Origin: a virus
Taxonomy: Duplodnaviria > Heunggongvirae > Uroviricota > Caudoviricetes
Virus record (IMG/VR): IMGVR_UViG_638275430_000001
Span: 86,274 to 150,273 of that record
Direction: 5' to 3' (one strand)
DNA: 64,000 nucleotides
Every line of letters starts with the position of its first letter. The first letter of the stretch is position 1. The notes below the pieces were generated by a model that worked only from the letters and a program-made list of their open reading frames with translations, made no database searches and was not told the origin of the DNA. The translations under genes and the position numbers were made by a program. Of the stretch, positions 9,047 to 28,745 are shown piece by piece.

Positions 9047-9422
9047 CTTGCTTCTCCATTTCTTTGATAAGATCAATATACACGGCTTTGGCTTCGTTCT
9101 CAACATATTCCGGGAGTCCCATTATGTCGAAACACAGACAGCGATTTTTATCCCATCCAAGATTGAAAGCGATTGACTGAGGGATATTTTTGTTTCCAAA
9201 CGGACGTTTCGCCGTTTTCAGAAACTCAACAATGCCCATTTTACATTGTTCGTCTTCTTCGCTTTGGAGATATTCGAGATAGAAACCCTTCAACACAGTT
9301 TCCAATCGAACACGTTCCCAAAACGGCTCCATTCGATTGTTGAGCGCGTTGTCCCAATACTTGACTCGGGTCATACCTGATTCGGCAACATATCGGGCAT
9401 TCAGTTTATGGAGATTCATCAC
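9027..9422 (-). CDS. Hypothetical protein, 131 aa
   Basis: GGAGG RBS; ATGA overlap. Confidence 0.7.
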   Translation of the reverse strand: MMNLHKLNARYVAESGMTRVKYWDNALNNRMEPFWERVRLETVLKGFYLEYLQSEEDEQCKMGIVEFLKTAKRPFGNKNIPQSIAFNLGWDKNRCLCFDIMGLPEYVENEAKAVYIDLIKEMEKQDEHQSN

Positions 9423-9676
9423 GCTTCCTCCTTCATTTCAGTTGCGTATTTCTCGATCATCTGCATAGTGATCCACTCGGGTTTAGTTTCAAAGCTGTTA
9501 TACAGTGCTTTCATGCTTTCGATTTGTTCGTCAACACTGCCAGCCCACAGACGGGATACAGAACGATTACCGTATCCCAGAAAGAATTCGCAATCGGATT
9601 TCATACGACTCAGTAACATGTATTTGAATTCATGATCTGCTGGACGAGTCGCGATAACTTCTTGAATATAGCTCAT
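9419..9676 (-). CDS. LPD11-like (large polyvalent protein-associated domain) standalone protein
   Basis: YMLLSRMKSDCEFFLGYG..LWAG..EQIESMKALY..KPEW matches the LPD11 pattern as recalled. Confidence 0.75.
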   Translation of the reverse strand: MSYIQEVIATRPADHEFKYMLLSRMKSDCEFFLGYGNRSVSRLWAGSVDEQIESMKALYNSFETKPEWITMQMIEKYATEMKEEA

Positions 9677-10110: not shown

Positions 10111-10232
10111 TGGAGGGGAAGACGGGACTCGAACCCGCGACCAACAGTTTGAATTTGCGTTTATTTGCGGTAAAGAATCTTAATCAGATTCCGCTTTGTG
10201 CGACTACTGCTCTACCACTGAGCTACTTCCCC
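10111..10232 (-). ncRNA. tRNA-bodied RNA (CCA-ended) with the anticodon loop replaced by a ~54-nt motif insert
   Basis: GGGGAAG/CTTCCCC acceptor, T73-CCA, normal D and T arms; insert GAATCT-GATTA-AGATTCTTTACCGCAAAT. Confidence 0.8.
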
Positions 10233-10240
10233 AAATTTTT

Positions 10241-10376
10241 ACAACACTATGCTGGCGGTGCTGGAGTCGAACCAGCGTTACAGGCTTAACAGGCGAGTAT
10301 TTATTGCAGGAATCATTCTTGACAGAATGAATTTTACAGTGTCCTACCACTAGACGAACCGCCAGCATAATGTTGT
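10241..10376 (-). ncRNA. tRNA-bodied RNA, CCA-less, ~19-bp terminal clamp, motif hairpin in place of the anticodon arm
   Basis: Glu-like D arm CGTCTAGTGGTAGGAC; T arm GCTGG-TTCGACT-CCAGC; insert TCATTCT-GTCA-AGAATGATTCCTGCAAT. Confidence 0.8.
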
Positions 10377-10505
10377 TTGTTGTCGCGATACTGGATTCGA
10401 ACCAGTGACGTTTCTCGATGTGCCCACACGCAACGGAATCGAACCGTTCTCGATACTTCCTCGGCTAGAGGACGTTCTCCCAACTGAACTAATCGCGACA
10501 ACAAA
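10376..10505 (-). ncRNA. tRNA-like RNA with two T arms and a 14-bp terminal clamp
   Basis: D arm GTTC-AGTTGGGA-GAAC; AACGG-TTCGATT-CCGTT and ACTGG-TTCGAAT-CCAGT; no CCA. Confidence 0.75.
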
Positions 10506-12987: not shown

Positions 12988-14424
12988 TTAGAAGTCGATA
13001 CCGACGTAACGGTCGCTCATGATCTTGTCAAGCATGATTTGCATCGGGTTAAAGTCTTTCGCACTCAGGATTGTCTCCATGATTGCGGGACTGAAACCGG
13101 ACACCAACGCAGTGCCTTGATCATCTTTGGTCACCGGATTGTTAGTCGGGCGCGGGCAAAGATTCCAGAATACCAGCTTCGGCATTTCGTAACCAGCATC
13201 GCGGTAAGTCTGACGAATCACCTCAAAGTTGGTACGTTCGCGATCACGCATACGATAGTATCCGCTGTAACCGCCGTCAGCGATGTTGAATTCCATGTCA
13301 GACAAGACGACCATCATAGTCGGCATATCTTCTTGCGGAACTCGATTGCGTACAGCGCGATCAAGAATGATCTTGAATGCACCGGCAAAGTTGGTAGAGC
13401 CACCCCAAGGAGCGCGTCCCAGATGATTCACCATGCTTTGCAGATCGTCGCCTTTCGCTTTGATGTTGTAGAACTGAGGATTATCATCGAAGGTAATCAC
13501 TTCGTTCTTGAACACGCCACCAGAGCGTTCGCCGATATACAGACCCAGAGAAATCGCGATGTCCATAGCAGACAGACCAGCAACAGCAGTCGGAGTGCTC
13601 ATAGAACCGGAAACGTCAACCATTGCGATTACGTTTTCGGTAGAGCCAGCCATCCAGTCGCGTTGTGCTTTCCATTGCGCGTCAGCAGCAATAGAAGAAC
13701 CGGTACGCATGGACTTGATCATGTCATACGGGTAAACTGCACCAGCGTTGATCTTAGCCTCGCCCTTTTTCAGAGACTCAAGGTAAGCAACATAACGCTC
13801 GTTCGCGTTTTTCAGGAATGCTTTCTGATATCGAGCAGAAGCAACAGACGGCAGTTTACCGAACTCAATGCCATCCCACTGACGAGCACACATCTTTTGT
13901 TCAACGGTGTTCGACATACGGACGATAGTGTGACGGTATTCTTTGGCAGTCATCTGCATGGCTTTCGCTAGAATGCCAGCTTCTGAGCCTTTGCGCGGTG
14001 CCCACTTTGCAGCAAGACCGTTTTGCTTGGTCATGATTGCATCAACCATGATCGCAACAGCGGCGTCCTGAATCGGAGAGTTGAACATCGCTACCACATC
14101 TTTGAAGCGACCGATTTCAGGAGTGTTCATCAGAACAACGGTAGCATCAACCGGGTGACGGTGTGCAAGGACTTTCAGCAGGCGGATGAATTGTTCGCGT
14201 TCACCGGCACCACCGCGAATATCGCGAGCCCATTGCAGAATGCGAACAGCCCAGTCCGGAGACTCGGTATAAGCATCAACAAACATCTGAGTTAGATCTT
14301 TCCCGCGAGAGGAACCAATCTGAGAAAACAGATTCAGACACTTGTCGCCAGTAGTGTAGTTAGTAACAGCACCGTTAGCAGTGCGGGCTTGAGCTTGTAC
14401 CATTGCATTCATAAAAGTAGACAC
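12988..14424 (-). CDS. DUF2828 / vWA protein (Ro60/TROVE-like), 478 aa from GTG
   Basis: RTANGA, WARDIRGGAGER, AAKWAPR, KINAGAVYPYD, MIDAS DVSGS, GGSTN and LSDMEF; GAGGT RBS before the GTG at 14424. Confidence 0.85.
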   Translation of the reverse strand: MSTFMNAMVQAQARTANGAVTNYTTGDKCLNLFSQIGSSRGKDLTQMFVDAYTESPDWAVRILQWARDIRGGAGEREQFIRLLKVLAHRHPVDATVVLMNTPEIGRFKDVVAMFNSPIQDAAVAIMVDAIMTKQNGLAAKWAPRKGSEAGILAKAMQMTAKEYRHTIVRMSNTVEQKMCARQWDGIEFGKLPSVASARYQKAFLKNANERYVAYLESLKKGEAKINAGAVYPYDMIKSMRTGSSIAADAQWKAQRDWMAGSTENVIAMVDVSGSMSTPTAVAGLSAMDIAISLGLYIGERSGGVFKNEVITFDDNPQFYNIKAKGDDLQSMVNHLGRAPWGGSTNFAGAFKIILDRAVRNRVPQEDMPTMMVVLSDMEFNIADGGYSGYYRMRDRERTNFEVIRQTYRDAGYEMPKLVFWNLCPRPTNNPVTKDDQGTALVSGFSPAIMETILSAKDFNPMQIMLDKIMSDRYVGIDF

Positions 14425-14437
14425 AGAATTACCTCTT

Positions 14438-15037
14438 TCAGGTTTGTTTGAATTTGTCCCAATCATAGGACAGTTTGTTTTTCCAGCACTTGCGGCAGAA
14501 CGAGATATAACGTTGTTCAGCCCCAATGCAAATTTGTTCACCGCGACGGATAACATTGCCGTTATCATCAACGCGAGCTACCATACAGGATTTTCTACCA
14601 CAATCGCAGATACCAGACAGTTGTCGGATTTCATCTGAGATCGAAAGCAATGCCCTAGAGCCGGGGAACAAGTTACCGAGAAAATCGGTACGCAGTCCGT
14701 AGCACATCACAGGGATATCCAGCTTGTCAACTACATCAGATAGTTCCCATACTTGTTTTTCAGTTAGGAACTGCGCTTCATCAACAAGAACACAGGCGAT
14801 TTCGGACAGTTTACTCTCTTTTTCGATCATTGTAAACATGTTTTCATTAACATGTACACATCGGCATTCACGCTGGATACCGATACGTGATCCAATCGTG
14901 CCTTCCGTTCTCGTGTCAAATGCTGGTTTGTACAACAGAACGTTTTGATTTCTCTCGTTGTAGTTGAAAGCCACTTGCAGTAATTGAGTGCTCTTTCCAA
15001 CGTTCATCGAGGCATGGGTGAAAAATAACTTAGCCAT
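14438..15037 (-). CDS. tk: Thymidine kinase
   Basis: SMNVGKST, VLVDEAQF, YGLRTDF and C-terminal Zn cysteines. Confidence 0.95.
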   Translation of the reverse strand: MAKLFFTHASMNVGKSTQLLQVAFNYNERNQNVLLYKPAFDTRTEGTIGSRIGIQRECRCVHVNENMFTMIEKESKLSEIACVLVDEAQFLTEKQVWELSDVVDKLDIPVMCYGLRTDFLGNLFPGSRALLSISDEIRQLSGICDCGRKSCMVARVDDNGNVIRRGEQICIGAEQRYISFCRKCWKNKLSYDWDKFKQT

Positions 15038-18444: not shown

Positions 18445-18527
18445 GGCGTTAGAAGGCGGGACTCGAACCCGCACCCCACTGGGTTTCTGCCCAGTAGCTC
18501 TTCCAATTGAGACTTACTACCAACACC
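18445..18527 (-). ncRNA. Degenerate tRNA-like element, CCA-less, extended acceptor stem
   Basis: GGTGTTGG/CTAACGCC stem, D-loop TGG, ACTGGG-CAGAAA-CCCAGT arm, canonical T arm. Confidence 0.65.
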
Positions 18528-24364: not shown

Positions 24365-24510
24365 CGGATTCACATACGGGAGCGGTGACTAACCCGCGTT
24401 ACTTTTATATGCTGTTCCCTCTCAGCCGCACATCCAACTACCGAAGCAAAGGAGTGCTATCCATTAATAGTAGAGTTTTGTTTTTGTATTGATTGCAGAA
24501 GTGAATCCAT
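24365..24510 (-). ncRNA. Motif RNA with a multi-hairpin interior
   Basis: GGATTCAC-TTCTGCAATCAAT ... GTGAATCC-G terminal stem. Confidence 0.7.
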
Positions 24511-24665: not shown

Positions 24666-24740
24666 TGGCGGTGCATACGGGAATCGAACCCGTATCTTGT
24701 GATAGACAGTCACGAATAATAGCCATTATACTAATGCACC
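24666..24740 (-). tRNA. tRNA-Asp(GTC)
   Basis: Cloverleaf, loop CT-GTC-TA, G73-CCA. Confidence 0.95.
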
Positions 24741-24746
24741 TAAATT

Positions 24747-24821
24747 TGGTAGTCCCGAATGGTATCGAACCATCCACATCCGCGTTATCAGCACGGCGCT
24801 CTACCTCTGAGCTACGGGACT
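24747..24821 (-). tRNA. tRNA-Ile(GAT)
   Basis: Cloverleaf, loop CT-GAT-AA, CCA. Confidence 0.95.
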
Positions 24822-24826
24822 AAAGA

Positions 24827-24936
24827 CTGAAAGACTTTTTAACTGCCACCTGGACTCTTGTGCTAGAGAGTTGAGGAATCGAACCTCACCGTTTTCTTAA
24901 AATAGAAAAGTTATATTGATTGCTGAAATCTTTCTT
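24827..24936 (-). ncRNA. Motif RNA with a circularly permuted tRNA-like domain (YrlA-like layout)
   Basis: GAAAGATTT-CAGCAATCAAT ... AAGTCTTTC stem enclosing a hairpin, a T arm TGAGG-TTCGATT-CCTCA and a closed stem ACTCT/AGAGT. Confidence 0.7.
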
Positions 24937-24947
24937 AGCACGGTAAA

Positions 24948-25048
24948 TCATTATTGCGGAGGAGGTTGGACTCGAACCAACATAGGGTTATTACCCGCAG
25001 ATTAACAGTCTGCCGCTCAACCTTTGAGCCACACCTCCGCAATAATGA
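24948..25048 (-). ncRNA. tRNA-Asn(GTT)-like, long variable arm, CCA-less, terminal clamp
   Basis: Loop CT-GTT-AA; variable arm GGGTAATAACCC; TCATTATTGCGGAGG pairs with CCTCCGCAATAATGA. Confidence 0.8.
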
Positions 25049-25063
25049 CTTGCAAATAAGAAA

Positions 25064-25127
25064 CGGAATGAACTTTTAAGGCTATTTCAAATAATGGCTT
25101 TTTAAGTTAGTTGCTGAACTCATTCCT
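25064..25127 (-). ncRNA. Minimal motif RNA
   Basis: GGAATGAG-TTCAGCAACTAA ... TTCATTCC-G. Confidence 0.7.
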
Positions 25128-25137
25128 ATCTTTGTTT

Positions 25138-25167
25138 ACTATACACTACTATTTAGTGACTGTAAAC
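25138..25167 (-). promoter_or_regulatory. T4-type early promoter with an embedded CTAAATA
   Basis: GTTTACA-N17-TATAGT. Confidence 0.75.
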
Positions 25168-25187
25168 AAAGCATCTTAAATTTTTGA

Positions 25188-25242
25188 CAGGCTCACTTTT
25201 TGATTTCATCCGCAGAAAAGTTTTGATTGCTGAACGGAGCCT
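25188..25242 (-). ncRNA. Minimal motif RNA
   Basis: AGGCTC-CGTTCAGCAATCAA ... GAGCCT-G. Confidence 0.7.
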
Positions 25243-25249
25243 TATAAAG

Positions 25250-25279
25250 ATTGTATCACGTTTTATCAACGTTGTAAAC
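25250..25279 (-). promoter_or_regulatory. T4-type early promoter
   Basis: GTTTACA-N17-TACAAT. Confidence 0.75.
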
Positions 25280-25317: not shown

Positions 25318-25347
25318 ATGATAGCATACGGTTCATAGAGTGTAAAC
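25318..25347 (-). promoter_or_regulatory. T4-type early promoter
   Basis: GTTTACA-N17-TATCAT. Confidence 0.7.
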
Positions 25348-28624: not shown

Positions 28625-28745
28625 AACACATTGTCCGGGTGGCGGGACTCGAACCCACAACCCACTGCTTCTTCTGTACTCTCGTTAGAAAGCACAGGAG
28701 AAGGCAGATGCGCTATCCTGTTGCGCCACACCCGGACAATGTGTT
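28625..28745 (-). ncRNA. tRNA-Arg(TCT)-like with a 28-nt anticodon-arm insert, CCA-less, 17-bp clamp
   Basis: TCTGC-CTTCT[CCTGTGCTTTCTAACGAGAGTACAGAAG]AA-GCAGT; AACACATTGTCCGGGTG pairs with CACCCGGACAATGTGTT. Confidence 0.8.

Follow-up and report, generated by a model that had tools for sequence, protein, structure and literature searches.

What kind of RNA occupies the space between the tRNA-Asn and tRNA-Ile genes of a T4-like Aeromonas phage, where no tRNA is called? The element concerned, e4, lies in a window of 64,000 nt (the whole stretch of DNA analyzed here; positions 86,274 to 150,273 of IMG/VR record IMGVR_UViG_638275430_000001), which is part of a 233,234-bp genome; in the numbering of the window, e4 is flanked by tRNA-Asn at 24956-25038 and tRNA-Ile at 24747-24821, within an array of 23 tRNA genes called by ARAGORN. 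Particles made of Ro60 and Y RNAs are found in animals, some bacteria, and a few phages. The sequence comparisons described below suggest that e4 is probably a partner RNA of a Ro60-shaped protein of this phage, the product of a gene of the DUF2828 family. The reading that we favor, and hold to be reasonably likely, is that e4 is a selected, structured Y-type RNA of ~107 nt, whose handle would be bound by the DUF2828 protein of Ro60 fold and whose tRNA-shaped module would act as the effector.

Read 5' to 3' on the minus strand, e4 consists of a handle and of what the handle encloses (Table 1). The handle is a covarying stem that joins the two ends of the RNA (P1), then a single-stranded UU-N-C(A/U/C)GCAA, with C(A/U)G as the 3' tail. 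Enclosed in the handle of e4 is the circularly permuted top half of a tRNA: a hairpin (V), a T arm, a closed acceptor-like stem (AS) stacked on it, and a vestigial D arm. The linker CGG separates V from the T arm; the T arm contains a match to GGTTCGATTCC, with covariation in 4 of its 5 stem pairs and a near-invariant loop; AS shows double-sided changes in all 5 pairs around an unconserved loop of 6-8 nt; and four G residues of the D-like stretch, which in full reads CCAGGUGGCAGUUAAA (24853-24838), are invariant across seven orthologues. At the 3' end, an AG(U) tail (24828-24826) is followed by a 4-nt spacer before tRNA-Ile. The minimum-free-energy fold computed with ViennaRNA has the same arrangement. 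Each of the parts named in a preliminary description of this DNA, i.e., terminal stem, hairpin, CGG, perfect T arm, abutting closed stem, and GG-containing D-like remnant, is found in its place on the minus strand, and the D stem is as weak as it had been judged, with 2-3 bp.

The same description had anticipated that tRNA finders would miss the element and that it lacks an end for aminoacylation, and both points hold. ARAGORN called neither a tRNA nor a transfer-messenger RNA (tmRNA) at e4, and in a search of the window with all Rfam families, including tRNA and YrlA, e4 had no match at the gathering threshold; when the cutoff was relaxed to E ≤ 10 over 24700-25100, no relevant match fell on e4, with the models of YrlA (RF02553), tRNA (RF00005), and Dictyostelium Class I RNA (RF01414) all silent. 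The search with the YrlA covariance model, put forward as a check, therefore came out negative for e4. As for the features that define RF00005, a loop caps the acceptor-like stem of e4, and there is no anticodon loop; having neither a free acceptor end nor an anticodon loop, e4 could be neither charged nor used in decoding. No open reading frame (ORF) of more than 35 aa overlaps the element. Covariance model R1, whose training set consisted of only the seven Aeromonas copies of e4, scores e4 itself at 121.4 bits.

Orthologues of e4 are present in phages Ah1, PX29, AsFcp_1, phiAS5, avDM12, and phiWae14, each adjoining tRNA-Asn, and the phages that carry them span four genera of Aeromonas phages (those named being Cinqassovirus, Angelvirus, and Chrysonvirus). 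The orthologue stands directly between tRNA-Asn and tRNA-Ile except in phiAS5, where an ORF precedes tRNA-Ile. The ORF inserted there, of 180 aa and noted as PHG31p119nc (360-902 of locus L002, minus strand), has a namesake between tRNA genes of Aeromonas phage 31 that is marked as not conserved in 44RR, and the phiAS5 copy is possibly a mobile gene like segB of the T4 tRNA cluster. An exact-pattern scan of viral contigs with the T-arm region returned three close relatives only, i.e., two Aeromonas phages and record L008.

Among these phages, P1 occurs as GAAAGA/UCUUUC, GGAAGA/UCUUCC, GGAACA/UGUUCC, or GGAUCA/UGAUCC, the T stem as UGAGG/CCUCA or UAGGG/CCCUA, and AS as ACUCU/AGAGU or GCUCG/CGAGU. 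Plain MAFFT alignments of the orthologues show drifting hairpin loops but stems held by compensatory change. RNAalifold, applied to a MAFFT alignment of six orthologues, reported compensatory changes in 8 of 20 predicted pairs, distributed over P1, V, and the T arm, and did not call the closed stem AS on this alignment. In a 16-sequence alignment that was fitted to R1 and is biased towards structure for that reason, a bias from which the MAFFT alignment is free, 93.7% of cells pair versus 37-62% in slid controls, the covariation score is 0.509 versus 0.06-0.10 in these controls, and double-sided changes occur in 21 of 25 pairs, with the observed score reached by none of 500 shuffles. The case that the structure of e4 is more than chance comes from this comparison, i.e., from compensatory changes, and not from stability. 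Conservation in related phages had been named beforehand as a further check, and the T arm and the closed stem are indeed kept with compensatory changes.

These changes bear directly on the notion that e4 is a functionless, decayed tRNA junction, in which the 3' half of one tRNA is joined to the 5' half of the next. Junctions of this kind mimic the T-acceptor-D order and are treated as false positives by Chen et al. (PMC4201824), and a degenerate D region, ordinary fold stability, and a linear reading of e4 as a 72-nt, tRNA-sized unit with 5 of 7 acceptor pairs (AGAAAGA/ACUCUCU) would suit such a relic. However, the linear acceptor is lost in orthologues, as in avDM12, where GCUCGCG has no upstream partner; P1, V, T, and AS covary; neither CAGCAA nor the four D-like G residues vary, despite the drift of the loops; and the same design recurs in distant phages. 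We therefore regard decay as very improbable. An ordinary linear tRNA with the acceptor AGAAAGA/ACUCUCU and the hairpin as its anticodon arm was ruled out as well, as the 3' acceptor strand is partnerless in avDM12, phiAS5, and phiWae14, and the closed stem covaries.

The permuted order of the elements also recalls the true permuted tRNA genes of the red alga Cyanidioschyzon, in which case the transcript would be cut in the AS loop and the ends of P1 would be joined. In e4, however, P1 pairs up to the termini, so that joining of the ends yields no 7-nt anticodon loop; AS and the D arm are short, at 5 bp and 2-3 bp; the 16 extra nucleotides of the CAGCAA linker have no counterpart in a tRNA; and the same ends are carried by family members with cargo that is not tRNA-like. 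A permuted tRNA gene is in our judgment scarcely credible.

The handle of e4 defines a family of RNAs. The consensus drawn from R1 matches is AAG-[6-9-bp stem]-UU-N-CAGCAA(A)C(A)A ... [stem']-C(U/A)G(A/U), and the motif together with the tail pattern was found in at least 30 R1 matches from other phages. In e4, it takes the form of a covarying terminal stem, a GAUUU-CAGCAAUC motif, and a UCUUUC-AGU tail, with a DUF2828-vWA gene on the same strand. CAGCAA is common to the paralogues of e4 in the window and to the handle RNAs of DUF2828 loci; within the window, a stem followed by UUC(A/U)GCAA(U)CAA recurs at three further places, namely the minimal handle RNAs e5 and e6 and the larger e3 (Table 1), the last of which was not recovered by R1.

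Inspection of 39 better-scoring R1 matches revealed a T arm in about half of them, and some of these relatives carry a fuller tRNA-like domain than e4. The match L029:14345-14461 (R1 E 5e-7) presents V, the T arm CAGGG-UUCGAUU-CCCUG, a 7-bp closed stem, UG, and the D arm GUGU-AGUGGCA-GCAU, and L036:9291-9406 a T arm, a closed stem, UA, and the D arm GCUC-AGUUGGUA-GAGC; L084:1860-1951 and L020:316-430 are of like design. The closed acceptor-like stem measures 7-8 bp in all four, and the D arm is canonical in L036, L029, and L020. When the Rfam YrlA model was run on L036, it aligned through T, AS, and D at two places, 9313-9413 with 39.1 bits (E 6.5e-7) and 9431-9544 with 29.6 bits (E 3.6e-4), both below the gathering threshold of RF02553, 69 bits. 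Within the lineage to which the window belongs (Aeromonas phages, L014, and L065), the D arm is reduced to a hairpin of 2-3 bp that keeps GG in its loop, in the forms CC-AGGU-GG, CC-UCGGAC-GG, GUC-UGGAC-GAC, and GUC-UGGC-GAC. The L036 phage offers a separate observation: at 9364-9491 on the plus strand, the Rfam tRNA model aligns (40.3 bits) a tRNA with a 70-nt insertion. The alignment begins at the D arm of one handle RNA and ends at the T arm of the following one; split tRNA halves and tandem handle RNAs interlock in this phage.

The link to DUF2828 comes from a search with R1 over 80 DUF2828 loci from IMG/VR, totaling 1.37 Mb, each oriented with the gene on the plus strand and extending 10 kb to either side. 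Outside the window, R1 gave 78 matches in these loci, and 48 of the 80 loci held at least one. The strand was that of the DUF2828 gene for 74 of the 78 (binomial p ~1e-17), and 45 of the 72 same-strand matches outside the gene lay within 1 kb of it, where 12% would be expected (p ~1e-23); both p-values are generous, given near-duplicate loci and an A-rich sense strand. All of the best 15 locus matches (E ≤ 0.004) are on the strand of the gene. In a small check of presence and absence, T4 and Aeromonas phage 31 had neither DUF2828 nor R1 matches, and both were present in Ah1, phiAS5, and the 247-kb record G001, from which locus L014 is taken. In the window's own 233-kb genome, R1 matches are confined to the tRNA region.

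This association is what separates the reading that we favor from one in which e4 is a stable tRNA-like RNA independent of DUF2828, e.g., a decoy or sponge for host tRNA nucleases or modifying enzymes, or a structural unit that directs processing of the tRNA array by RNase P or RNase E. Such an RNA could be expected at the place where e4 stands, inside a tRNA array at tRNA-like spacing and 10 kb from the DUF2828 gene, and the tRNA cluster of T4 also contains stable non-tRNA species, one of which, rnaC, has a T arm. On the other hand, R1 is silent in T4 and phage 31, both without DUF2828; handles cluster within 1 kb of DUF2828 genes, on the same strand, in unrelated phages; and many family members are without any tRNA-like part, which makes the handle, and not the tRNA mimic, the part that the family shares. 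Independence from DUF2828 is thus unlikely, in our estimation.

The protein itself carries Pfam domains DUF2828 and DUF7788/vWA and matches PHROG 850, annotated "RNA-binding protein"; Pfam TROVE has no match in it or anywhere else in the genome. An AlphaFold2 model built with 35 homologues reached a mean predicted local distance difference test (pLDDT) of 87.9 and a predicted template modeling score (pTM) of 0.88. Foldseek aligned this model over the full length of Ro60 at probability 1.00, with a template modeling score (TM) of 0.64 against the Xenopus structure 1yvr, and gave further Ro60 matches at the same probability, i.e., phiLo 9kop/9l5y, Deinococcus Rsr 2nvo, and human Ro60. The DUF2828 protein of the window is accordingly predicted by modeling to have a fold like that of full-length Ro60. 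Residues D272, S274, and S276 of its metal ion-dependent adhesion site (MIDAS) are invariant, and more than 7,900 relatives were found at E ≤ 1e-5, a lower bound counted among the matches listed. Since homologues measure 460-480 aa, the start codon probably lies near 14430. A thymidine kinase ORF (14438-15037, minus strand) overlaps the 5' extension of the long DUF2828 ORF (12988-14571).

How such a pair might work can be sketched as follows. Three promoter-like sites, which are consensus matches only, stand upstream of e4 on the minus strand at 25346, 25278, and 25166; these tandem TTTACA-17-TAnnAT sites (25318-25346, 25250-25278, and 25138-25166) are aimed at e6, e5, and the tRNA array, and a consensus scan of the minus strand around the e4 array found no terminator-like site. 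On this basis e4 would be transcribed together with the minus-strand tRNA array. Its release may fall to the enzymes of tRNA processing, with the RNase P cut at tRNA-Ile, 7 nt downstream, setting the 3' side. In other phages, too, handle RNAs lie within tRNA arrays with spacers of 3-10 nt (L014:2157-2273 between tRNA-Gln and tRNA-Thr; L065:19437-19553 ending 3 nt before tRNA-Glu), so that RNase P acting at the downstream tRNA would define their 3' side. In the study of Chen et al. (PMC4201824), the only YrlA that RNase P cut was one whose acceptor-like stem has 7 bp, and by that standard e4, with an AS of 5 bp, would stay closed. The Ro60-fold DUF2828-vWA protein would then bind P1 and CAGCAA of the handle, as same-strand co-location in unrelated phages suggests. 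The tRNA-like module may form an elbow between T loop and D loop, and this elbow could, as an effector, dock tRNA-recognizing enzymes or RNases onto the protein ring, as proposed for YrlA, an arrangement that would suit the repair or quality control of the phage's large tRNA pool.

Several points weigh against a Y-type RNA bound by the DUF2828 protein. The fold stability of e4 is ordinary, the core having z = -1.54 with 13 of 200 shuffles equally stable, and with flanks included, the fold energy is not significant (z = 0.14). The distance between e4 and the DUF2828 gene, 10.3 kb, exceeds the 4 kb typical of YrlA. The 80 loci were picked for DUF2828, so that the true partner could be another constant neighbor gene, and the near-duplicates among them and the fitting of the larger alignment to R1 tell in the same direction. 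A D arm of just 2-3 bp makes the elbow of e4 uncertain. Finally, the bare motif is hardly enriched in the window, TTNCWGCAA occurring 7 times where 5.6 are expected; TTCWGCAA occurs 13 times versus 6.6 expected, with 3 of 100 shuffles as high. The motif is too short to prove anything alone, and a scan of the whole genome for a stem plus NGCAA was far too permissive to discriminate.

Table 1. Positions, in window coordinates, of element e4 and its parts, of the DUF2828 gene, and of the other handle RNAs
Feature	Position	Strand	Sequence	Remarks
Element e4, whole	24826..24936 (core 24828-24934, 107 nt)	(-)		CAGCAA-handle RNA with permuted tRNA-like domain
P1, 5' strand (handle stem)	24926..24934	(-)	GAAAGAUUU	9 bp with 24829-24837; double-sided changes in 7 of 9 pairs
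Handle motif, single-stranded	24910..24925	(-)	CAGCAAUCAAUAUAAC	Immediately 3' of P1 5' strand; CAGCAA invariant in 7 orthologues
V hairpin	24892..24909	(-)	UUUUCU-AUUUUA-AGAAAA	Double-sided changes in 5 of 6 pairs; loop varies in length and sequence
T arm	24872..24888	(-)	UGAGG-UUCGAUU-CCUCA	5 bp, 7-nt loop, G-C closing pair
Closed acceptor-like stem, AS	24854..24871	(-)	ACUCU-CUAGCACA-AGAGU	0 nt from T stem
D-like remnant and linker	24838..24853	(-)	CC-AGGU-GG-CAGUUAAA	Mini-hairpin of 2-3 bp, GG in loop
P1, 3' strand	24829..24837	(-)	AAGUCUUUC	Pairs with 24926-24934; conserved AG(U) tail follows
DUF2828 + DUF7788/vWA gene	12988..14430 (ORF open to 14571)	(-)		~480 aa; Pfam; proposed partner of e4
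Minimal handle RNA e5	25063..25127	(-)	GGAAUGAGUU-CAGCAAC...AAGUUCAUUCC	R1 20.6 bits, E 0.0026
Minimal handle RNA e6	25187..25243	(-)	GGCUCCGUU-CAGCAAUCAAAAC...GUGAGCC-UG	R1 19.3 bits, E 0.0065
Handle RNA e3	24365..24510 (approximate ends)	(-)	GGAUUCAC-UUCUGCAAUCAAUAC...GUGAAUCC	Non-tRNA cargo; read from sequence

Elsewhere in the window, two elements on the minus strand, at 10114-10232 and 10251-10366, are complete tRNA-like bodies, each with acceptor, D, and T arms, in which the anticodon loop is replaced by an insertion of 53 nt in the first and of roughly equal length in the second. Each insertion consists of a closed hairpin followed by UUUACCGCAAAUAAAC or UUCCUGCAAUAAAUAC, i.e., the handle in closed form; the first body scores 53 bits with the Rfam tRNA model, and ARAGORN calls neither. 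With the handle closed and the acceptor open, versus a handle that is open and an acceptor-like stem that is closed in e4, these bodies are circular permutations of e4, and in both isomers the motif side runs to the T arm and the partner strand arrives from the D side. Another tRNA-like gene missed by ARAGORN (28634-28735, minus strand; Rfam tRNA 49.8 bits) has 31 nt in place of three anticodon-loop positions of the Rfam model. Perfect T-loop sequences, GGTTCGANTCC, also stand outside the ARAGORN and Rfam tRNA calls at 10393-10403, 10435-10445, and 18459-18469 (minus strand), where further tRNA-like elements are probably present.

A wider reading, which we advance as speculation and consider doubtful, would place DUF2828-vWA proteins and CAGCAA-handle RNAs in a large branch of their own, sister to the Ro60/Y-RNA particle, with one protein-binding handle attached to cargoes that can be exchanged. 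As part of this joint reading, and equally doubtful, the cargoes would be permuted tRNA halves as in e4, whole tRNAs whose anticodon loop carries the handle, and plain hairpins; the handle would persist as the Class I RNAs of social amoebae; and in T4-like phages the particle, recruiting tRNA enzymes or RNases through its tRNA-shaped modules, would guard or repair the phage's own tRNA pool against host anticodon nucleases.

Among known systems, the closest in architecture is YrlA (RF02553). The order of T arm, closed acceptor stem, and D arm that the preliminary description ascribed to YrlA agrees with Chen et al. 2014 (PMC4201824), who describe paired ends that enclose a motif adjoining the 5' strand and then V, T, AS, and D. 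Like YrlA, e4 has paired ends, and a short, conserved, unpaired motif stands next to the 5' strand; V, T, the closed AS, and a D-like remnant then come in the same order, and the result is a tRNA mimic without a chargeable end; e4 also lies on the same strand as the gene for a Ro60-fold vWA/MIDAS protein, and there are several different Y-like RNAs per genome. The differences lie in the motif position, which holds UUUCAGCAAUC in e4 (family C(A/U/C)GCAA) versus GNCGAAN0-1G in YrlA; in the location, YrlA genes being within ~4 kb of a TROVE Ro60 gene and e4 inside a tRNA array, 10.3 kb from DUF2828; and in the tRNA-like part, e4 having a D arm of 2-3 bp, an AS of 5 bp, and no RF02553 match. YrlA is furthermore bound by Ro60/Rsr and acquires pseudouridine 55 and dihydrouridine from TruB and DusA; for e4, binding by the Ro60-fold DUF2828 protein is proposed. 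The YrlA-type reading made at the outset is therefore supported as to architecture, by element order, covariation, distant relatives, and the Ro60-fold protein, and fails as to membership: e4 is not a member of Rfam YrlA, given the lack of a model match, the other 5' motif, the non-TROVE protein, and the 10-kb distance, to which the reduced D arm may be added.

Phage cases of Ro60 with YrlA-type Y RNAs are known from mycobacteriophages (PMC4201824), and a survey of jumbo phages mentions a few phages in which a ROT/TROVE protein has a tRNA-like partner (PMC7824862). In Thermus phage phiLo, Ro60 occurs with Yrl1 and Yrl2 (PMC12135203; PDB 9KOP, 9L5Y). Here, too, a phage encodes both a Ro60-fold protein and the RNAs, and the model of the window protein matches 9kop and 9l5y; however, phiLo Ro60 belongs to the TROVE family and its Yrl RNAs were found via a CGAA motif just upstream of the gene, whereas protein family and RNA motif are both different in the window, where the pairing is a proposed one.

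The handle itself has a close likeness outside phages, in the Class I RNAs of Dictyostelium (RF01414), whose consensus GaUcuC-CUUACAGCAAU...GagAuC-UG has the same CAGCAAU core and CUG tail around a variable interior. Kjellin et al. 2021 (PMC7919456) describe these RNAs as having a short stem at the ends, a motif of 11 nt next to its 5' strand, a 5' G that is conserved, and the tail CUGU, which fits the handle. Matches to RF01414 were below the threshold of 41.5 bits, at 15.5 bits for e6 (full-length) and 17.5 bits for L036:9293-9405, and none fell on e4. Class I RNAs differ in being 42-65 nt long, in that a tRNA-like cargo is not reported for them, and in their known binder, the RNA recognition motif (RRM) protein Rnp1A. 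We take a possible kinship of the handle with Class I RNAs as no more than a lead.

Closer to home, species 1 and 2 of T4 (rnaC and rnaD) are likewise stable non-tRNA RNAs in a T4-type tRNA cluster, with spacers of 1 and 6 nt, and rnaC shares a T arm with e4. In rnaC, however, what comes after the T arm is the 3' strand of an open acceptor, in the normal and not the permuted order, and the fold differs; neither RNA has the CAGCAA handle, and R1 had no match in the whole T4 record. Homology of e4 to rnaC or rnaD was rejected, no similarity having been found. tmRNA and its permuted two-piece form resemble e4 in that a non-tRNA gene combines a T arm and a reduced D region with circular permutation. 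Unlike e4, tmRNA retains an acceptor end that is open and can be charged, along with the reading frame of the tag.

No description of DUF2828 as a relative of Ro60 or of the handle RNAs was found in the literature, Rfam 15 holds no family for CAGCAA-handle RNAs, and the pairing of the two appears to be unpublished. If it is true, a very common phage protein family would own Y-like RNAs, and "orphan" conserved RNAs that tRNA finders skip in phage tRNA arrays would be explained. In that case, T4-type phages, in which a single genome holds many natural variants of the cargo, would be a system open to genetics for the question of what a tRNA-shaped Y RNA recruits, and with it the role of the tRNA-like module in bacterial Y RNAs; the function of dictyostelid Class I RNAs would gain a testable lead. 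To the systems compared here, e4 adds a clean, covarying, permuted tRNA-like cargo in cultured T4-type phages, in a genome that also holds its non-permuted isomers.

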